From a virus, in IMG/VR virus record IMGVR_UViG_3300045974_000399, positions 17,908 through 81,907 of that record: a stretch of 64,000 nucleotides of DNA; one strand, written 5' to 3'. Below, piece by piece: positions 1 to 46,844 of the stretch; position 1 is the first letter of the stretch; every line of letters begins with the position of its first letter. A program made the translations under genes and the position numbers. The notes under the pieces are model-generated. The model worked only from the letters and a program-made list of their open reading frames with translations, searched no databases and was not told the origin of the DNA.

Positions 1-909
1 CCTGTTTATATTGCAATTCAAGGTGGGCCGGCTTGGGTTATTTCTTAAGTAGTTTAGGCCTCTGATGTCTGCTGATTTGAAGTTTTGTGCGGCAGATTGC
101 TCAGGGACGCTATCAACTAAGTCCTGTATAAATCGGTTCATGTTCATATTGTACGGAGGATTAATCTTGTGGTCGGATACCTTGGAGATAACTATGTCGG
201 TATTCTTTAGCTTACGGAGCCTCTCAAAGATGTGTAGAATTTCACCTGATCTACCTGGTAAGACGTTCAACACAAAGACAAGATTATCATTAGGAATGGG
301 GTCAAAATAGTCGTATGACAATCTACTGAATTCTTGGTCAAAGTTATCTACATTTAGTGACCTGAGGATCAGGATCTTTGTAGGTAGTATTCGGATAAAA
401 CCCATCAAGTCATCATCCAAGTTAAGGCCATTAGTGAATAGTGTAATGCTATCAAAAGAGTGATACACACCCAACAATAGATTCTTTAATGCCCCCTTGT
501 CAATAGTAGGCTCACCCCCAAAGATATGTAAGTCTCGTATACTAGGATATAGCTCTTTATGCTTTAAGATGTGAGTAACGGACGCAAAGTCAGCTACGGG
601 TCTATTCCTACTCAGACAATACTCGCAGCTTAGATTGCACTCTGAGTTTGATACTACCAACGTAGTGTACTTTATTTCCTTTCGGTCTAGAGTATTGGCA
701 TAAAAGATTTGTCTCTGCTTAGGCGTTACCTCTTTTAGGTACACGCTACAAAACTGAACGTCTTCTATGCCCTCGCTGGATATTGAGATCAAAGGACTTA
801 CTTCAGCAAAGTTATCAAAAAGTATGTGACCATCTTTGACTTTTATTATGAACCCAGAAGTAACATCAGACAGAGCAATTAAGTTGTTTTTGGTTATTGC
901 AGGAATCAT
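1..909 (-). CDS. Radical SAM enzyme, possibly SPASM-type peptide maturase; truncated at window edge, absent from ORF track
   Basis: Manual translation from ATG 907-909 (ATGA overlap with upstream stop): MIPAITKNN...CNLSCEYC (CxxxCxxC, 616-639)...HIFGGEP...LFTNG. No stop in the part translated (421-909); absence from the ORF track fits a frame running off the edge. Confidence 0.93.
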   Translation of the reverse strand, partial: MIPAITKNNLIALSDVTSGFIIKVKDGHILFDNFAEVSPLISISSEGIEDVQFCSVYLKEVTPKQRQIFYANTLDRKEIKYTTLVVSNSECNLSCEYCLSRNRPVADFASVTHILKHKELYPSIRDLHIFGGEPTIDKGALKNLLLGVYHSFDSITLFTNGLNLDDDLMGFIRILPTKILILRSLNVDNFDQEFSRLSYDYFDPIPNDNLVFVLNVLPGRSGEILHIFERLRKLKNTDIVISKVSDHKINPPYNMNMNRFIQDLVDSVPEQSAAQNFKSADIRGLNYLRNNPSRPTLNCNINR

Positions 910-1658
910 ATTGCAGATACTCGATAATAGCTACTGTAGATTCCAAAAGAAGTACCTGCTATGTTTATGGTCTTACCTGATTTGAACACGTACTCACCAG
1001 AAACATTGAGAGTTATCTCAGCCTTGTGCAGATGCAAATCTAGGAGTGGATATGCTCCAGTACTTGGGTTAAGCTTAAGCTCCGTTATGTCCCTTAAAAG
1101 GTAGACTGAAGCAGCGCTATCAGAGGGACTAGATACAACCTCCAGAGAAACCTGACCAAGGGGGTCATACAGATTAAAATCCAGAGTTGTCGGATAATTA
1201 GGGCTAGATACCCAAGCTTCTCTTGATCTGTAAGCTACTACCTCAAGGCCATCCCTACTAATGCACTTGGTTATCAAACGGCTTGCTAAACGAGACTGAA
1301 GAAATGCACACAGCGTATCTGGATCGCTGAAGTACAAGAGGTTTATGTCTGCGTGTCGGTATATTGTAACTCCGAGCAAGTCCGTGGTATCCAGTATTCC
1401 GAATGAGCTTAACTCAAGCTCAAACTTGCTCTTGTAAAAGGATAGATCTTTAGTCTCCTCGTAGTCAAAGCCCCTGAAGGTGAAATCCCTGGCAGTTATC
1501 AAGGATACACCTTCCCGAATATTATTGTAAAACGGCGTGGCATTCAGATTAACGTCCGTAAGGATAAGACCCGAGGGGTCACCCGCTATATCAGGTACAA
1601 CCCGAATTAAGTCTGCCGTGCTAGCTGCATTCTTGTCTTTAACCATTAAGATCAACAT
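906..1658 (-). CDS. Hypothetical protein between tail fibre and radical SAM gene
   Basis: 250 aa ORF, AGGAG RBS, stop overlaps the radical SAM start. Confidence 0.6.
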   Translation of the reverse strand: MLILMVKDKNAASTADLIRVVPDIAGDPSGLILTDVNLNATPFYNNIREGVSLITARDFTFRGFDYEETKDLSFYKSKFELELSSFGILDTTDLLGVTIYRHADINLLYFSDPDTLCAFLQSRLASRLITKCISRDGLEVVAYRSREAWVSSPNYPTTLDFNLYDPLGQVSLEVVSSPSDSAASVYLLRDITELKLNPSTGAYPLLDLHLHKAEITLNVSGEYVFKSGKTINIAGTSFGIYSSYYRVSAI

Positions 1659-1685
1659 GTGTTTGTCTCCTAGAGAAGATTGACG

Positions 1686-3812
1686 TTACATCATTCCTTG
1701 GCAGCAGCTATGCGGAGAATAAAACTGACAAGTGCAAGGACAGGTACAGGTACAAGTGCAAGTACATGAGCAAAACTGAACGTTAGGCGGGTTAGAGTCA
1801 GAATATGGAACATACACAGGATTACTCGGGTCCGAAGTAAACGTTAGCTTTAGTGCATTCCCCAGAATCATATCCTTAGCTGGAACCAGAACATGGGCGG
1901 CAGCTGCATCCGTTTTATCGTATGCTAGTAAATTATACTGACCTGCCAATTTTTCAGCAGAAACCGGAGGGGCGATACCGTTCAAAGTAACTGTATTAGT
2001 TGCATTGTCCAGAGCTATGGTTAGGTAGCTACCTACAGCAATATTAAGAACATCCTCCGTGCCCTTGGCTATGATAGGTGTTTTACCTGGAGAGGCTATC
2101 GTTTTATACGCCAGCAACGTGCCGAGATTTGTTATGGTCATGGTTTTATTTACAGGGTCTGTTATTACAGCAACACCTGTACCACCATTTACTACCAGAG
2201 TATCCTGTAAAGCATTCATGTTAATTTGACCCTGCGAAGCATAGGCAGGGGTACTATTCGAGACCGCAATAGAGTGAACGTTCTGAGTGGTGTTTGTAAC
2301 CGTTATGGTCTCGGTAGCTGGATCTGTGGCTAAACCTATTCCCGGTCCAGCGCTAATTGCTCTCCGTGTTCCAACAATTCTACCCCAGGTAGAGTTACCT
2401 TCGTAGATAAGATAATCTCCAACGTTAAAGTGAACCCCACCCATTGTACCCTGAAGAGATATCTTCCAGTAGTGACCCTGACGAAGTTCAGTAAATATCG
2501 TGGTTGGTGTAGCGGGAGGATAAACTCCAGAGGAAGCGTCCCAAAGCCCTTTGTATAAGACATAGGGTAGCTCTGTGTTGTCAATCTTGTCCCACAAGCC
2601 AGTTCCTTCGTATACCAGCCAGTCACCTGTTTGGTAAGCTACGTTATTCAAGACCCCACCTACAGCGATAACGTAGTAACTACCGGGTGTTACTGCGTTG
2701 TTTGGATATCCTGCTGCGCCGGCATAAGTTCCATCTGGATTCTTGATATTCCAGCGACCTGCATATACCAAACCGGCAACGTGAGAGTAGGGCAATGACC
2801 AGATTATGATGTTTGATTTATCCGCCTCATTGTTAGCCGCCATGTTTACAACTTGGCTGGTGGGTATGATTGTTCCTGTTGTGGTTATCCCACAAGGATC
2901 CGAACTTTCCGGGGTAGCACCTGTTGCACCCAGCAAAGATAAGGCTTCATACAGCACCTCAAACTTACCTGTAAGTGCACCTGAACTGTGATACTTTATC
3001 GCCCGACATTGACCCTTACCTCGACCGGAATAGATATACATGAACGCCCAGTCAACAGAAATAAGTGGTGGCGGGGAGTCTACGATTAACGCAGAAAACA
3101 AGGTAAACGTATTGTGTACTCCGTCACCTGCCCCTGGAGAAGTTTCAGGAACGTCAGATGTAACACTCGTTACGGTACCCTGATATAGCAAGGAGCCATT
3201 CAAGAGACCCCAAGCTAGTGGGCCAGTATCAGACATTGCATACCGGGTAACGATTGCAGGATGAATCTTGGTATTCGTGGGAGAGTAATCCTTTGTTATC
3301 CCATGATTGACCACGTAGGCGTTACTTCCCGTCTTGGCAGGATGAGGAAGATCCCCATAGAAGTTGACTCGGGGTAAACTCATGGCCCAAGTCAGAGTCA
3401 AGTCAACTACTGAGCCCAAATAAGGAGATAATAAGACACAGTGCGTCTTATATATCTGACCAGGCTGCTTGACTATAGGCTCCGCGTAACAGGTAAGGGC
3501 AAAAAGTATCTGGACTCCAGCATTATTGGGGTCATCAATGTATAGACCGATTTCCCCAATAAACAAAGGACCTAGACCGGATGCGGTAACAGGTACAGTA
3601 CATACAAAGTCCATTACCTCATCCGTTAAAACGTCTACTGTGCCTATTGTCCCCTCGTACACTATTTCCCCATGAAGTGCAGTGTCCTCTTTCACAGGCG
3701 AGTAGTTTGTTCCGCTGCCTACCTTGAAGTTGAGTATCTGAAGCTTTATCTGCTTTGAGTTCGCATCAAGTATTCTTTCGTACCCGATGGCTGTTATCTG
3801 CATAGTGCTCAT
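1686..3812 (-). CDS. Tail fibre protein with Cys-rich C-terminus
   Basis: N-terminal baseplate-attachment-like segment (FKVGSG...IGEIGLY...LFA), repeated G.W.....YP / GD.L.Y.G...W modules, ends CSCTCTCTCTCPCTCQFYSPHSCCQGMM. Start moved to ATG 3812 (GGAG RBS). Confidence 0.8.
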   Translation of the reverse strand: MSTMQITAIGYERILDANSKQIKLQILNFKVGSGTNYSPVKEDTALHGEIVYEGTIGTVDVLTDEVMDFVCTVPVTASGLGPLFIGEIGLYIDDPNNAGVQILFALTCYAEPIVKQPGQIYKTHCVLLSPYLGSVVDLTLTWAMSLPRVNFYGDLPHPAKTGSNAYVVNHGITKDYSPTNTKIHPAIVTRYAMSDTGPLAWGLLNGSLLYQGTVTSVTSDVPETSPGAGDGVHNTFTLFSALIVDSPPPLISVDWAFMYIYSGRGKGQCRAIKYHSSGALTGKFEVLYEALSLLGATGATPESSDPCGITTTGTIIPTSQVVNMAANNEADKSNIIIWSLPYSHVAGLVYAGRWNIKNPDGTYAGAAGYPNNAVTPGSYYVIAVGGVLNNVAYQTGDWLVYEGTGLWDKIDNTELPYVLYKGLWDASSGVYPPATPTTIFTELRQGHYWKISLQGTMGGVHFNVGDYLIYEGNSTWGRIVGTRRAISAGPGIGLATDPATETITVTNTTQNVHSIAVSNSTPAYASQGQINMNALQDTLVVNGGTGVAVITDPVNKTMTITNLGTLLAYKTIASPGKTPIIAKGTEDVLNIAVGSYLTIALDNATNTVTLNGIAPPVSAEKLAGQYNLLAYDKTDAAAAHVLVPAKDMILGNALKLTFTSDPSNPVYVPYSDSNPPNVQFCSCTCTCTCTCPCTCQFYSPHSCCQGMM

Positions 3813-3840
3813 ACTGCTCTCCTTTTTGGTACGAAATTTC

Positions 3841-5679
3841 CTAGCCAAAATCCACTATTTTTCGAGACTTAACATCAGATAACTTTGCCACGTTTCTGCA
3901 TAAATACTGGATAGTAACACCTTCTTCAATCTCAGAGCACTCAGGAGTAATTTCCACTAGTCTAGGTATCCCGAATATAACCGCGTTATAGTCAGGATAT
4001 GGAGAGTACAAAACCATCTCAGAAGGAGCAAGCATGTAAAACATATCTACTACGCTCTTATCTAAAGGTAAATGCACAATATCATCTCGGGTATATGGCC
4101 TAAGATGATTCCAGTAGCTACGATATGTAGCCGGTGTAGTTATACTTGATATGAGCGCCCAGGATGAGGGGTTAGTTGTAGGATACTGATTCGTAGACAA
4201 TGCCCCTGATGCTACAGTGCACTTGTAAAATTTGCCCGAGGTCAACTCATACCTAGAGGTAGCATAAGGTTTTCCCGAGCCAACGTGAACTATATCTCCT
4301 ATATTGTACGGAATGAAAGGGTTCCAGATACCTTTGTGGGCTGCGGCGTCCGCGTCGGTCCAAATCAGACTGGAGGATCTAACTGACCACTTACTTAAGG
4401 TATCCGCGGGAGTAACATTGGGATTTATATGACCAATTCTAGGGTCTCCTGCGGTTAAGGTAGGATAGTGTAGATTAGACCCCATCATAAGATATATCGG
4501 TGCATAGTTTACAGTGCACACGTAGTCAATACCTGGGTCATTCTCATAAATTTCAGTCGTATAAATATTAGTTACAGGATTTACTGGTAGAGTCTCAGGA
4601 CGATAAAATAGCAGATAATTGCGGGTGTATAACTGAGTCAGAGTCCACGTGTCTGTAGGATCGCGCTGTTTCAACAGGAAGTTCAACAACAGCATGAATT
4701 TATCTGTGCCAGCCACAGACTTATACCTAGAAAGGTATATAACATAGTTAAGAAATGTTCCTGATAAAAGCCAGCTGAATTTGCTGAGGTCAAATCCCAA
4801 AAGTTTAGAGGTACGTGAAACTATTTCTGGATGAGTATCAATGGTTATCTGCCTAAGCCTACCTAGCTCTACGATAGGCATATCTACCTGGTCAAGAAGT
4901 GTTTCATCCGAAGCGGAAATATAGTCGGCAATGAACGGAGAATCCTGCATCCAAGGGGGTGCTTGTTTCTTACGAAGCGGAATATACTCCCACACTTTAA
5001 CGTATATATTCCAAGAAGTAACCGTAACAATAGAGTCTGGATCTACTCCACCTACAGAATCAGAGTCAACGCCACCAATGGAATCAACGCTTACGGTTAA
5101 ACTTGTTGGACTAGAAGAGGTTACAAATCCCTCAACAAAGGTCTTACTCTTTCCAGGTAGGGTACAGGAACAACGCACTCTTTCATTTACTGCTATTGTG
5201 TTCCCTGTAACTACAAACGTTAAACTACCATACCCGATATTATGAGAGGTCGAACTAGTTATTGGGGTGGTATAAAAATCCTTCCGAAAGGAAGCCGATG
5301 ACTCATGCCGAGAAACGCACACAAAGTGTATATGACCATACAGAACAATCTCATTCTCAGAGTACAGATGTCTAAATATCCAAGGTCGAGGTAAATCCCA
5401 GGACAGTCTATTCCAGCGACGCGCTAAGAAATCGGTCTTAAATAGCGTACTCGGGTTATGCGCTATCACGCACTCATAAACTGAGTTGTCATATTTTACA
5501 TTTTGTCCCACCTGGTATAGTTTTGTCCATATAGCGGGGTTTGATTCTGGAGCTTTCCCAACATTACTTTCTACCGCTGTATATATGAATCCGCTCCGAA
5601 GTACTACTGCGTTTATCAGATACGCTGTGCCAATATTCCAGGGCGTAGTAATTCCAGGTTTCCATATGTCCGCTCGCAT
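3841..5679 (-). CDS. Baseplate wedge / tail protein with carbohydrate-binding (CBM5/12-like) repeats
   Basis: Several W....Y..G..V.Y....Y.C...H repeats; central LLGFD...GT segment; lies between wedge gene and fibre. Start ATG 5679 with AGGAGG. Confidence 0.65.
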   Translation of the reverse strand: MRADIWKPGITTPWNIGTAYLINAVVLRSGFIYTAVESNVGKAPESNPAIWTKLYQVGQNVKYDNSVYECVIAHNPSTLFKTDFLARRWNRLSWDLPRPWIFRHLYSENEIVLYGHIHFVCVSRHESSASFRKDFYTTPITSSTSHNIGYGSLTFVVTGNTIAVNERVRCSCTLPGKSKTFVEGFVTSSSPTSLTVSVDSIGGVDSDSVGGVDPDSIVTVTSWNIYVKVWEYIPLRKKQAPPWMQDSPFIADYISASDETLLDQVDMPIVELGRLRQITIDTHPEIVSRTSKLLGFDLSKFSWLLSGTFLNYVIYLSRYKSVAGTDKFMLLLNFLLKQRDPTDTWTLTQLYTRNYLLFYRPETLPVNPVTNIYTTEIYENDPGIDYVCTVNYAPIYLMMGSNLHYPTLTAGDPRIGHINPNVTPADTLSKWSVRSSSLIWTDADAAAHKGIWNPFIPYNIGDIVHVGSGKPYATSRYELTSGKFYKCTVASGALSTNQYPTTNPSSWALISSITTPATYRSYWNHLRPYTRDDIVHLPLDKSVVDMFYMLAPSEMVLYSPYPDYNAVIFGIPRLVEITPECSEIEEGVTIQYLCRNVAKLSDVKSRKIVDFG

Positions 5680-5689
5680 GGAGTTCCTC

Positions 5690-7642
5690 CTAGTTCGGAA
5701 TAAGCTGTATTGAACCGTCAGCTCTAGTAACCTTAGTAAAGTTACCAGCCGCCTCCGAGGGGTCCACATAATTTACAGTATTCCGACTGGAGTAACCGGT
5801 TTCAATAACCAGATCACTACTGGAAACACTTATGTATGCGGGGGGTGTTGGTATGCCCGTTACGGGATGCACCGAAATTGGTATAGGGATAAAGTCAGAC
5901 GCAGGTACTAAGTCACCCGCTGGAGTTGGGTCAAAAAACTCTATATAGTCAATTTCAGGAATACTTGTCTTAAGGATATTAGATATATCTGTGAGTGCTA
6001 TTCGCTTATTCAATATCTGCTGGCTTGTGCTGAACACACTCAAAATAAAAGTTCTAGCACTAGCTGCAACCGTGGATAAATCTGTCCTCAAAAAGCACAT
6101 TATCTTTACTTGTAACTTGCGGGCATCCTTTATAGGATTCTGAGGTTTAAGAATTGAACCCTTATACTTATACTGGTCAAACCAGGTTAGAAACGCTGCC
6201 CACTCTGAGTTTGTCCAGTTTACGCCTGTATCAGAAAGAATACTCACCCATATTAGATTCATAAGCTTTGGGTGTGCATCTGTGGTTGTAAGGATATAAT
6301 CCACGGTCTCAACAGGATTTATTGGAGGCTCTGCGCTCTTATCCCAGAGTGGAATCATCATCTTAAGCAAGAGATCTCTTTCAAAGCGAATACAGACATC
6401 TCCAACCCCTGGATACGATAAACAATATGCAATATGGTCATCTGTTGTAACTGCTCTACAATTAGCTTTGAAGAGCATTGAGGCAGTAGCTTTGTAATAG
6501 CGTGCCGGCCTTTCATCATGCCCTGTGGCAGTAGTAGTCAAAATCCAAGTGCCTGCAGCTAACAGTTTTGCCTTGAAGTTATTTACGATAGATACAGTAG
6601 CATCCCTGCCGGAAACATGAACAATGGTTCCTATTCCGACTCCAGTTACCTCTTCTATCTGAAGTCCGACAAAAGACTTAGACCAAATACTACCAACAGG
6701 TAGATTAAATATTGGCAGCGCATCTGTGATTGAACTGATTTGAATAGATACGCTAGAAAGAGTCATACCCTCTGCGCTTTGCAGTACATTATCACGAGTT
6801 ACAAATCCCTTGACACCCTGTGGGGGTGTACTATTTAGGATAGCATTCAGAGTTACCGAGCTAAAGACCGAAGTAATTGGAGAACTGGCACCTAGGGTCT
6901 CAACATAAGTTATTTCTATGCTAGATCCATAAGCTGGTTTGGCACCATTTATTCCGTTACCAAATTGTAGTACAACGTCACCTGTCCCTAAGGTATCATC
7001 CACAAAAACAGTTGCGGAGGGGCCATAATTCCAAAGGCCGTCAATTATGCGTGTCCAAGTTACACCGCCAATTATCATCCTTATGTCTAAGTCTGAGATA
7101 CTCATTGGAGATATAGCAGGTATCGACAACTGCTGAAAGTCTGTTCCATCGGAAACATAGTTTCTGTAGTATAGAGAACCTTGATGTATAAATACTTTAT
7201 CAATTGCTGAAGTTGGATTACCTGAGATATCATTGGCAAAAGTTATCGGCGTTCGATTGAAGTAGTCAACACCAAGAACGTTAAACTGGGAGTACTCAGG
7301 AATAGTTACAGTTCCGGTTATTGGAAGAGTATCCTGAGAAAACCTGTTAAGCGTTATAATTTGCGCTGCAGGAAGCTTACGCATTATCCTAACACCTAGC
7401 ATCCGAGTAAGCGCATATATCGTGCTATCTCTATTTGCTGTGTCAAAAAAACCTTCCTTTAGTGACTGCTCGATAGACCACTGATTGTAGGTTCCAATTG
7501 CGCTGTTATGCTCAATCAGAGTTTCACCTGTAGACCCTTCGTTAAGATCAGTCCAAGAGTCTCTTTGCTTAAGGTCATCCTGAAGCGCAGCTACATAGGA
7601 TGTAAAATCTGCTTTTACGTTTATTAAATCCAGTTTTGGCAT
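5690..7642 (-). CDS. Baseplate wedge subunit (T4 gp6 / gpJ-like)
   Basis: W.D..EGS.G..L, F.DTA..., V.FG.G..G..P, Y..T.G and RAVT..D motifs; follows a gp25-like gene. Confidence 0.85.
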   Translation of the reverse strand: MPKLDLINVKADFTSYVAALQDDLKQRDSWTDLNEGSTGETLIEHNSAIGTYNQWSIEQSLKEGFFDTANRDSTIYALTRMLGVRIMRKLPAAQIITLNRFSQDTLPITGTVTIPEYSQFNVLGVDYFNRTPITFANDISGNPTSAIDKVFIHQGSLYYRNYVSDGTDFQQLSIPAISPMSISDLDIRMIIGGVTWTRIIDGLWNYGPSATVFVDDTLGTGDVVLQFGNGINGAKPAYGSSIEITYVETLGASSPITSVFSSVTLNAILNSTPPQGVKGFVTRDNVLQSAEGMTLSSVSIQISSITDALPIFNLPVGSIWSKSFVGLQIEEVTGVGIGTIVHVSGRDATVSIVNNFKAKLLAAGTWILTTTATGHDERPARYYKATASMLFKANCRAVTTDDHIAYCLSYPGVGDVCIRFERDLLLKMMIPLWDKSAEPPINPVETVDYILTTTDAHPKLMNLIWVSILSDTGVNWTNSEWAAFLTWFDQYKYKGSILKPQNPIKDARKLQVKIMCFLRTDLSTVAASARTFILSVFSTSQQILNKRIALTDISNILKTSIPEIDYIEFFDPTPAGDLVPASDFIPIPISVHPVTGIPTPPAYISVSSSDLVIETGYSSRNTVNYVDPSEAAGNFTKVTRADGSIQLIPN

Positions 7643-25776: not shown

Positions 25777-26676
25777 TTATTTAAGCTCAAAATCAATCTG
25801 CAACAGTGCCGCGGAATTACCAGAAGCCAGACGTATTCGGTCAAGGATGGATTTTACTCCAGCTTCTTCTTCAACCTGCTCACGGACGTACCACTCCAGG
25901 AATATGCAGGTGGCAGCGTCAGTTTCCCTAGCCAGGAAATAAAGGTCGCTTATCTTACGAGTAATCATCTTCTCGTGCTGTAATGCAGCCATGAAAAACT
26001 CTTCGAGACTACATGGAGCGGTAACGATGGCTGGTTGCTCAGGTATGAAGACCATCCATTGTTTATCGAGCAGAAACTTGAACATCCCATCTGCGTGCTT
26101 TATCTCCTCCGAGTACTTATCCTTGAAAAACTTCTCGGTTCCAAATAGCCCTCGATTGTTTGCTACTCCGCTAAGCACCCAGTATAAGTTAGCAGATGCT
26201 ATTTCGAGGCCAACCTGGAGATTGAGAAGATTGAGCAGCTCAACATTCGTGGGCGTGATATCCACAGTACACCCACACGGGTTGTATCCTTTTCCCATTC
26301 CTTCAGGGGGATTTAAGAATGGATTATCCAAAACAGGTTCCGGAGGTGCTGGCTCGGTCTCACAAACTGGAGCAGTGCACTCAGGAGCTGGCTCACATAC
26401 AGGAGCAGGTTCAGGACAAGTCTCACAAACTGGAGCAGGTTCAGGGTAGGGCACGTTATCAGTTATGAGTTCCTCGGGGACTACAGCCGCAGGTGTCTCA
26501 ATTACTTCCAGCCTTTCAGAAGCCTCCCGTAGCTCGTCCAGTGAAATCGGTCTTAAGCTTAGCGCTCCATCCTGCTCTGGGATATCACCCATGCTTGTAG
26601 GAGCAGTAACGAATACCTCTGCAGAGGAAAACTCTGCATCTCCGTATAAACCTTGCAGTATTGCTTTCTTCATCAT
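25777..26676 (-). CDS. Non-heme ferritin with long Pro/Glu/Cys-rich N-terminal extension
   Basis: LN.Q...E..S...Y, EE..HA, LQHEK.IT, DAAT..FLEWYV.EQVEEE ferroxidase motifs. Confidence 0.92.
   Translation of the reverse strand: MMKKAILQGLYGDAEFSSAEVFVTAPTSMGDIPEQDGALSLRPISLDELREASERLEVIETPAAVVPEELITDNVPYPEPAPVCETCPEPAPVCEPAPECTAPVCETEPAPPEPVLDNPFLNPPEGMGKGYNPCGCTVDITPTNVELLNLLNLQVGLEIASANLYWVLSGVANNRGLFGTEKFFKDKYSEEIKHADGMFKFLLDKQWMVFIPEQPAIVTAPCSLEEFFMAALQHEKMITRKISDLYFLARETDAATCIFLEWYVREQVEEEAGVKSILDRIRLASGNSAALLQIDFELK
26340..26450 (-). repeat. Imperfect tandem repeats encoding PEPAPVCE
   Basis: Recurrent caaactggagcag / ggagcaggttcagg units. Confidence 0.7.
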
Positions 26677-46058: not shown

Positions 46059-46844
46059 TTACGCTTTATGCTTCAAGGCATATAGCGTGTAAGTATCCCC
46101 GGCAGTGGGGGTTATTACAGGCGCGCCAGAGTTGAAGAAAATAACAGACAGGGTTGTGCTGTTTGCGAAACTACACCCCAAAATGGTTAGCCCGGCTTGC
46201 AAAGTCTGTTTTGTCAGCCGAATAGGAATGTCCGTGGCGCTTAGCCCAGTAAAACCATCCAGGTACTGTTCGCTAATACCTGTAGCTACCCCGTTAAGAG
46301 CTCCGGTGGACGCATGGGATACAACTTCGTACCCATTGAGATATGCTGCGTCTGTTGCGCTTGTGGCACTTGTTGCTGTGTCCGCGGTAGTAGCGTGGTC
46401 CGCATTGGTGGCTGTGGTAGCTGTTGTGGCTGTGGTAGCAGAGTCTGCGGTGGTAGCATGACCGGCATTGGTAGCTGTTGTAGCTGTAGTGGCTGTAGTG
46501 GCGCTATCGGCAACAGTAGCATGTCCTGCATTTGTTGCTGTGTCAGCGGTAGTAGCATGATCCGCATTGGTAGCAGAATCAGCTGTGGTAGCATGACCAG
46601 CATTAGTCGCGGTAGTAGCTGTAGTTGCATGACCGGCATTGGTAGCGGTATCCGCTGCTACCGCATGGGCTACAGTACCCTCGAGATCAATTATGCCCAC
46701 TGCAGTAATGTACCCCGTTGATAAAGCATCAGAAAGGTCTGCTGACAGCGCGGATACTTCAAAAGAAGCACCAGCAGTTCTTTCCATGCCGTCAAGCTCA
46801 AGAGATCCATTCCCAATCTTACCTGTTACTGTGATCTTAATCAT
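46059..46844 (-). CDS. Short fibre-like protein with Ala/Thr repeats
   Basis: (ATTATNAGH / ATTADS)n followed by A.YLNG; strong RBS. Confidence 0.65.
   Translation of the reverse strand: MIKITVTGKIGNGSLELDGMERTAGASFEVSALSADLSDALSTGYITAVGIIDLEGTVAHAVAADTATNAGHATTATTATNAGHATTADSATNADHATTADTATNAGHATVADSATTATTATTATNAGHATTADSATTATTATTATNADHATTADTATSATSATDAAYLNGYEVVSHASTGALNGVATGISEQYLDGFTGLSATDIPIRLTKQTLQAGLTILGCSFANSTTLSVIFFNSGAPVITPTAGDTYTLYALKHKA
46350..46670 (-). repeat. Imperfect 9/27-nt tandem repeats (A-T-T / A-x-H-A)
   Basis: Recurrent gtagcatgaccggcattggtagc units. Confidence 0.8.

Follow-up and report, generated by a model that had tools for sequence, protein, structure and literature searches.

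Cysteine-rich polypeptides that are cross-linked by radical S-adenosylmethionine (rSAM) enzymes are the closest described counterparts of the system analysed here, a phage tail fibre that ends in a ladder of cysteines and is followed in its gene string by two rSAM enzymes, rSAM1 and rSAM2. The locus lies in a 64,000-nucleotide stretch of viral DNA (hereafter the window; bases 17908-81907 of the 81.9-kb IMG/VR virus record IMGVR_UViG_3300045974_000399, which CheckV rates as 31% complete), and we read it along with the 17.9 kb of the same record that precede the window start (L003). The one DNA sequencing run listed with this stretch of an uncultured giant phage is a pond metagenome, probably its source, and no RNA data set was listed for it. 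The CteB/CteA pair (thermocellin, a SCIFF ranthipeptide; PDB 5WGG/5WHY) resembles it in that CteB combines an N-terminal peptide-binding domain, an rSAM core and a SPASM domain, a three-part layout also predicted for rSAM2, and in that the substrate is Cys-rich and offers Thr as acceptor, the thioether of SCIFF peptides linking Cys to a Thr carbon. However, CteB and rSAM2 share only ~15% identity, rSAM2 falls below the cut-off of TIGR03974, the phage carries two divergent enzymes, and the substrate of CteB is a free peptide of ~45 residues whereas the proposed phage target is the end of a virion fibre of ~700 residues. PapB/PapA (freyrasin) and QhpD/QhpC are further thioether-forming rSAM/SPASM systems, QhpD acting on a protein subunit, and both are matched by the enzyme of a second phage locus described below. 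PapB and QhpD bridge Cys to Asp/Glu, and they do so within C-x3-D/E motifs that the window tail does not have; the window enzymes reach 17-47 bits on the PapB and QhpD models.

The same logic of an rSAM/SPASM gene beside a periodic Cys-repeat protein is found in the in-silico systems of NCBIfam (CXXX-repeat TIGR04115, HxsA-C, CefB and CcpM), although these are bioinformatic families with other repeat periods, below whose cut-offs the window enzymes score. Periodic metal ligands at a trimeric fibre end are familiar from the HxH iron sites of the T4 gp37/gp12 type, which differ from the ladder in using His instead of Cys and in having neither a dedicated enzyme nor adjacent rSAM genes. Thioethers placed by an rSAM/SPASM enzyme on a large Cys-rich protein have a biochemical precedent in CrpC of Methanococcus voltae, an rSAM/SPASM enzyme with a RiPP recognition element (RRE; RiPP, peptide made by the ribosome and then modified post-translationally) that links the Cys-repeat region at the C-terminus of full-size CrpA by ranthionine bridges (Dieter et al. 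2026, PMC13692751). That system (TIGR04463 family) differs in being archaeal and cellular, in its 17-residue repeats with C-x-x-Q/D and in having no virion link, and the window enzymes show no family-level match to it. A full-text literature search found no paper linking rSAM enzymes to phage fibre proteins; the 11-12 rSAM genes of the Campylobacter phages CP220 and CPt10 were read as metabolic in the 2010 genome paper (PMC2853527), and a cyanophage paper mentions an rSAM maturase merely as an 'antibiotic gene' (PMC12801897).

Against this background, we conclude from sequence comparisons that a Cys-ladder fibre tail and rSAM/SPASM-type enzymes are genuinely and repeatedly paired. Because unrelated phages show the pairing as well, the phage probably modifies the tip of its own fibre chemically.

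A cysteine ladder on a conserved fibre module

The fibre and its C-terminal elements are located as follows (window coordinates).

1686-3848, minus strand: tail fibre gene, 720 residues from a TTG start, ~708 residues from the ATG at 3812, which is the likely true start
1689-1913, minus strand: conserved module of ~75 residues as defined by alignment, comprising a leader-like segment (Y.L..Y...PAK....G.aL.l.F....VY.P), the ladder and CC[QK]G
1689-1772, minus strand: Cys ladder in the last 28 fibre residues, (C-X)7-C, an 8-residue spacer and CCQGMM

The C-terminus of the fibre reads NVQF, followed by CSCTCTCTCTCPCTC and then QFYSPHSCCQGMM. Only five of its 15 Cys (in 720 residues) fall within residues 1-692; the other ten occupy positions 693, 695, ..., 707, 715 and 716, eight of them in strict alternation. 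The ten Cys in the last 28 residues that an earlier note on this DNA had described are thus borne out, and the hypergeometric probability of finding at least that many there is 3.6e-12. At the DNA level the ladder is an imperfect TGY-ACN hexamer repeat (75% matches) whose codons vary synonymously (tgc/tgt, act/acc), and because the repeat is imperfect in this way it fits a ladder that is maintained at the protein level and is not a fresh microsatellite. A Cys scan of 82 kb found no real open reading frame (ORF) with a Cys ladder other than the fibre. At window 46314-46721 (plus strand), a Cys-rich ORF was rejected as an antisense frame of a real gene, and the scan also flagged an ORF at window 25777-26676.

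The product of 1686-3848 can be assigned as a phage tail fibre, since its N-terminus matches tail-collar/tail fibre families (phrog_1162, E 4e-7; phrog_3737, E 8e-5) the protein matches the fibres of the jumbo phages Lu11, phiRSL1 and Motura in tblastn searches, and the gene comes after those of the baseplate wedge and a CBM5/12 tail protein. PF12571 scores 19.1 bits on it, under the cut-off of 23, and no NCBIfam model, target models included, matches the fibre at E <=0.1. Together, the baseplate and fibre proteins share 23-34% identity with those of jumbo myoviruses of Proteobacteria (Motura, PaBG, phiRSL1 and Lu11). Within the fibre, repeats of ~60 residues (G.W......YP...G.YW.I...G...G..Y..GDW) are present in two copies (window 2370-2780, residues about 355-495), and the fibre of a related contig, L006 (L006:8004-10568), has at least six, so that fibre length varies with the number of repeats.

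Alignment reveals that the ~75-residue module is common to the window fibre, the L006 fibre and P0005, a 438-residue metagenome protein with an unrelated body. In the L006 fibre the middle part is not alignable to the window fibre and the last ~75 residues are the same, ending in ...EFCGCTCTCTCQC...CNCC, and in P0005 the module ends in ...YCSCTCTCPCPC...CCQGMCW. Because the same residues sit on bodies that are non-alignable in the middle or unrelated, the unit that travels is the module itself, made up of the conserved segment, the ladder and CC[QK]G. The number of repeat units ranges from 5 to 12 across homologues, and C-T-C-T-C is the core common to all four ladders (window, L006, P0005 and the lambda-like phage L112 described below). 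Searching IMG/VR with the tail-module alignment confirmed nothing, and a search of metagenomes with P0005 gave no related loci.

Two rSAM enzymes in the tail module

Three genes follow the fibre on the same strand.

Window 906-1658, minus strand: ORF of P0003, an orphan protein of 250 residues between the fibre and rSAM1
Window 1-909, minus strand: first 303 codons of rSAM1; full gene at L003:17563-18816, 417 residues
L003:16329-17573, same strand as the fibre and wholly beyond the window start: rSAM2, 414 residues, with rSAM motifs

The fibre stop and the P0003 start are separated by a gap of 27 nucleotides that contains GGAG, the P0003 stop and the rSAM1 start overlap as ATGA, and rSAM1 and rSAM2 overlap by 11 nucleotides with GGAGG upstream. 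Given this tight spacing, we infer that the four genes are co-transcribed; promoter and terminator scans gave signals at background level. The earlier note had placed, beyond one intervening gene after the fibre, an ORF (<1..909) with CNLSCEYC, FGGEP and TNG and ~90 residues ahead of the cluster motif, and all of this holds for rSAM1, in which CNLSCEYC occupies residues 91-98 and is preceded by 90 residues. It had also suggested reading the adjoining DNA for a SPASM domain and further rSAM genes. In that DNA, the last 120 residues of rSAM1 contain 12 Cys, including CRTCPLIYSCTARC (CX2CX5CX3C, as in the SPASM signature), which makes a SPASM domain in rSAM1 a candidate, and rSAM2 lies directly behind it. 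The Pfam Radical_SAM model matches the truncated rSAM1 ORF with E 2e-6, just below the gathering score, and PF04055 matches the full protein with E 4e-6 (27.6 bits against a cut-off of 29.5) and rSAM2, which carries CNMDCSFC and SGGEPLL, with E 3e-11, above the cut-off. On their motifs and these scores, both proteins are assigned to the radical SAM superfamily.

As pattern for the auxiliary-cluster domain we used CX9-15GX4C ... CX2CX5CX3C ... C, and by inspection the C-terminal Cys of rSAM2 are arranged as CX9GX4C, then CX3CX5CX3C, then C, so that together with its model rSAM2 can be classed as a SPASM-domain rSAM enzyme of the CteB/anSME type. A profile search of 1.84e9 representative proteins yielded 23 at E <1e-30, including the window's own two and the L006 enzymes, and a structure of rSAM2 modelled with these 23 family proteins reached a pLDDT score (the predicted value of the local distance difference test) of 87.4 and a predicted template modelling (pTM) score of 0.87. 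Foldseek placed CteB first (5why/5wgg, E 2e-13), followed by TigE, anSME, ChlB, SkfB and SuiB. In VIA comparisons, CteB gave Z 21.7 over model residues 5-406 (360 aligned), ChlB Z 21.9 (residues 73-406), anSME Z 21.1 (residues 79-414) and EpeE Z 16, and viperin, MoaA, BtrN and QueE gave Z 10-14, with viperin, MoaA and QueE matching the core only. CteB is also the best PDB match of the rSAM2 sequence profile (E 5e-13). As both the full-length fold match and the best profile match are to CteB, the model identifies rSAM2 as a peptide/protein-modifying rSAM enzyme of CteB architecture, far closer to CteB and anSME than to nucleotide- or cofactor-acting rSAM enzymes, so that the clustering with the latter by which the earlier note would have refuted its reading is not seen. 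A PqqD-like RRE, which binds a leader, consists of three strands plus helices; residues 8-76 of rSAM2 are modelled as four strands and two helices, and the alignments start at residues 5-6 for CteB and TigE and at residues 73-79 for anSME and ChlB; in the model, therefore, the extra N-terminal domain aligns only with enzymes that have such a domain. A predicted complex of rSAM2 with the 91-residue fibre tail scored 0.01 and speaks neither for nor against binding.

The best scores of the window enzymes against PapB (NF047865), SCIFF (TIGR03974), QhpD (TIGR03906) and CcpM (TIGR04068) are 16-50 bits, against cut-offs of 340-500, and the partial NCBIfam matches of both mix peptide maturases and generic cores. 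By these scores, rSAM1 and rSAM2 belong to no named maturase family. A tblastn search with rSAM2 of 50,697 GenBank phage records found no family member, its profile recovered one family member from metagenomes, on a 1.5-kb contig, and among the matches listed from 185,579 species genomes there were only generic rSAM enzymes with 20-25% identity. We take this to suggest a divergent rSAM family that has no close relative in GenBank phages and no close cellular homologue among the matches listed. A search of IMG/VR with rSAM1 for related loci found none.

The surrounding genes are the following.

Window 5690-7642, minus strand: baseplate wedge subunit (phrog_219, E 9e-37)
Window 3841-5769, minus strand: tail protein with a carbohydrate-binding module, CBM5/12 (phrog_14098; PF02839, E 6e-11)
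L003:15859-16227: membrane protein of 122 residues, between rSAM2 and the collagen-like tail fibre
L003:15190-15846: protein of 218 residues with an N-terminus resembling a signal peptide and a weak TIGR02594 match
L003:13657-15174: collagen-like tail fibre, downstream of the rSAM pair
L003:10756-13191: NAD-dependent DNA ligase, 811 residues, with an N-terminal extension of ~240 residues outside any Pfam model

With the baseplate wedge and the CBM5/12 protein upstream and the collagen-like fibre downstream, the rSAM pair sits inside the tail module. The 122-residue membrane protein and the 218-residue protein may act in lysis or belong to the fibre system. From the baseplate to the DNA ligase, the neighbouring genes yielded neither a protease nor an exporter or transporter. 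P0003 has no Pfam, NCBIfam or PHROG match and no homologue among the 5.8e9 proteins searched, and its leads in the Atlas are weak and tail-protein-like, none of them useful.

Recurrence of the pairing in other phages

L004-L007, L023-L025 and others form a group of IMG/VR contigs, represented here by L006, that encodes an 854-residue fibre whose N-terminal part is 45% identical to the window fibre. It is followed by a 245-residue ORF, at the position of P0003 and with undetectable similarity to it, and then by four rSAM genes, of which one is rSAM1-like, two are rSAM2-like and one is MiaB/RimO-like. The C-terminal Cys of rSAM1 are conserved in the first enzyme of this cluster, a protein of 454 residues. 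A second occurrence, in the lambda-like phage L112, was recovered by a DNA-pattern scan of IMG/VR for C.CTCTC.C.C, the matches of which are mostly non-coding simple repeats. The gene of its J protein (phrog_31, E 2e-151) is followed, two genes on, by that of the 191-residue ladder protein, which has three HxH motifs (HYH, HYH and HTH) upstream of the ladder and ends in CCECECTCTCT...EQCCSECDCGD. Directly after this gene comes a PapB-like rSAM/SPASM enzyme (NF047865, 208 bits, whole model covered), for which QhpD (136 bits), SCIFF and CXXX-repeat maturases are the next-best models. Each cluster includes one extra rSAM gene of a tailoring type, in L006 the MiaB/RimO-like one of the four.

L006:12700-13818: MiaB/RimO-like methylthiotransferase without a TRAM domain, 372 residues (149 bits)
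L112:2898-4247: B12-binding rSAM enzyme after the PapB-like one, PhpK-like (88 bits)

A hidden Markov model (HMM) of the rSAM family, run on 120 pattern-matched IMG/VR loci (1.08 Mb), gave matches only in L112 and L197, which are also the only two of the 120 that have a coding C-terminal ladder and a downstream flank. In line with this, 13 of the 1021 ORFs that lie no more than 3 kb from phage rSAM genes have Cys-repeat tails, against 0 of 1110 farther away, counts that include near-identical duplicate loci. The co-occurrence of ladder-tailed fibres with rSAM genes that the earlier note had anticipated is therefore seen both in the 45%-identical L006 relative and in the unrelated L112. Its idea of a RiPP-style modification is supported in part, by the recurrent link between ladder and rSAM enzymes; in the strict sense the term 'RiPP' does not fit, because the core belongs to a 720-residue structural protein with neither a protease nor an exporter encoded in the vicinity.

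Other phage contigs pair rSAM genes with Cys-repeat tails of other periods, and the C-x-C ladder of the window is one variant of a broad set.

L026:4040-6619 (also L028): CxxC tail on a protein of 860 residues
L034:8914-9429: CTSCTS repeats
L044:7876-8490: FCPCNCN heptads
L060:4964-5482: CNCNYCT heptads
L065:11213-11881: CxxxC repeats
L277:505-2109, L282:8169-9752, L309:8001-9599 and about 30 further metagenome loci: ACHS/ACHD-tailed proteins
L353:2050-3654 and L353:5974-7143: gp145 and the gp141 region of Campylobacter phage CPt10 (NC_027996.1)

The ACHS/ACHD-tailed proteins have 530-650 residues and end in about eight repeats (...CHDACHSACHSACHS...VSGGSH); their genes lie immediately upstream of HxsB-like rSAM genes, and they resemble large proteins to which a His-Xaa-Ser (HxsA) target has been fused. 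In CPt10, gp145 (535 residues) contains seven CxCNYCT heptads, which the record annotates only as 21-bp DNA repeats, and lies 2.3 kb upstream of the PapB-like rSAM gp141, with a 'tail fiber protein attachment catalyst' gene in between. CPt10 is cultured and could be a tractable model for the rSAM/Cys-repeat theme.

A proposed stapled fibre tip and its alternatives

We propose that the fibre C-terminus is a built-in substrate, in which the conserved segment of ~45 residues that precedes the (Cys-Thr)n ladder and the CC[QK]G end would act as a RiPP-like leader and recruit the enzymes. rSAM1 and rSAM2, each with an extension of ~85 residues before its rSAM core and a predicted Cys-rich domain for auxiliary clusters after it, would be produced from the same tightly coupled gene string as the fibre and would act on the tail inside the infected cell, either while the fibre is being assembled or earlier. 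By radical chemistry they would most likely join Cys sulfur to a carbon of the adjacent Thr, or of other residues, in thioethers of the ranthionine type, and the outcome would be a covalently stapled fibre end that resists redox and protease. Cys-Thr thioethers are suggested because C-T-C-T-C is common to all ladders and CteB uses Thr. That the tail is a substrate of the rSAM enzymes appears probable to us from the sequence and gene context, and we hold the exact chemistry, drawn by analogy, with less confidence. To the complete scheme, in which a leader-like segment recruits twin rSAM/SPASM enzymes that build a Cys-Thr thioether ladder, possibly between the chains of the trimer, and thereby staple the host-recognition tip, with portable cassettes of tail and enzymes moving between unrelated fibres, we assign a probability of about 0.4.

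The ladder could instead be a structural metal site, in which the one-sided Cys face of a beta strand in the trimer binds Zn, Fe, Cu or Fe-S and the rSAM enzymes serve otherwise. C-X-C and CC are classic metal-thiolate ligands, and the three HxH motifs in the L112 ladder protein are what such a site might be accompanied by; however, this leaves unexplained why rSAM enzymes of the peptide/protein-modifying type stand beside coding ladders in independent lineages and nowhere else among the 120 control loci, and why Thr is conserved between the ladder Cys, and we regard it as unlikely. No more likely, in our judgement, is that the rSAM enzymes modify the tail without thioethers, by formylglycine formation (anSME-like), epimerisation (YydG/EpeE-like), methylation or methylthiolation, or C-C cross-links. 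anSME, ChlB and EpeE are structurally about as near to rSAM2 as CteB is (Z 21.1, 21.9 and 16), and in the sister clusters there is also a MiaB/RimO-like methylthiotransferase (L006) or a B12-type rSAM enzyme (L112). Yet sequence and full-length fold both match best to CteB, a thioether synthase, the L112 enzyme, which is independent, resembles PapB, QhpD and SCIFF maturases, all of them thioether-forming, and the tail does not contain the anSME target motif C/S-x-P/A-x-R. The layout of leader-like segment, Cys-rich core and rSAM/SPASM enzymes, as in sacti- and ranthipeptide clusters, would also suit a precursor from which a small RiPP, antimicrobial or signalling, is cut free, with the fibre merely as its carrier. 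We consider this very improbable, as no protease or exporter is found among the genes neighbouring the operon and the module occurs on three different fibre-type bodies inside tail modules. Least credible of all is a slippage-prone simple repeat that has no function and lies beside rSAM genes by chance: the ladder DNA is indeed a hexamer repeat and its unit number differs among homologues, but the synonymous variation preserves frame and Cys positions, unrelated proteins have the flanking residues and the terminal CC[QK]G in common, and the co-occurrence test over 120 loci argues against chance.

Several points weigh against a fibre tip stapled by rSAM1 and rSAM2. The Pfam SPASM HMM matches neither enzyme, and neither reaches an NCBIfam equivalog cut-off. 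For rSAM1, the AlphaFold2 model has a pLDDT of 52, with the N-terminus of low confidence and the C-terminal Cys-rich part below 50, hhalign aligns it with the rSAM-family profile only over core residues 84-181, and its sole homologue is the 454-residue L006 protein, at 22% identity over residues 75-383. L006 shares ancestry with the window and is not independent support, which leaves L112 as the only independent case. PapB and QhpD use Asp/Glu acceptors, which the tail does not offer; metallothioneins and other metal-thiolate proteins typically show C-X-C and CC runs; and the argument as a whole draws on sequence and predicted structure.

A covalently stapled fibre tip, if true, would mean that the adsorption organelle of a virion is modified by enzymatic cross-linking. 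Fibre tips decide host range and must withstand harsh environments, and their enzymatic cross-linking would represent a new layer of virion maturation, a counterpart to the HK97 capsid chain-mail that is made by radical SAM enzymes. It would add large structural proteins to the peptides on which rSAM/SPASM maturases act, would provide a compact pair of tag and enzyme for stapling engineered proteins, and would explain many orphan phage rSAM genes, such as those of CP220 and CPt10.

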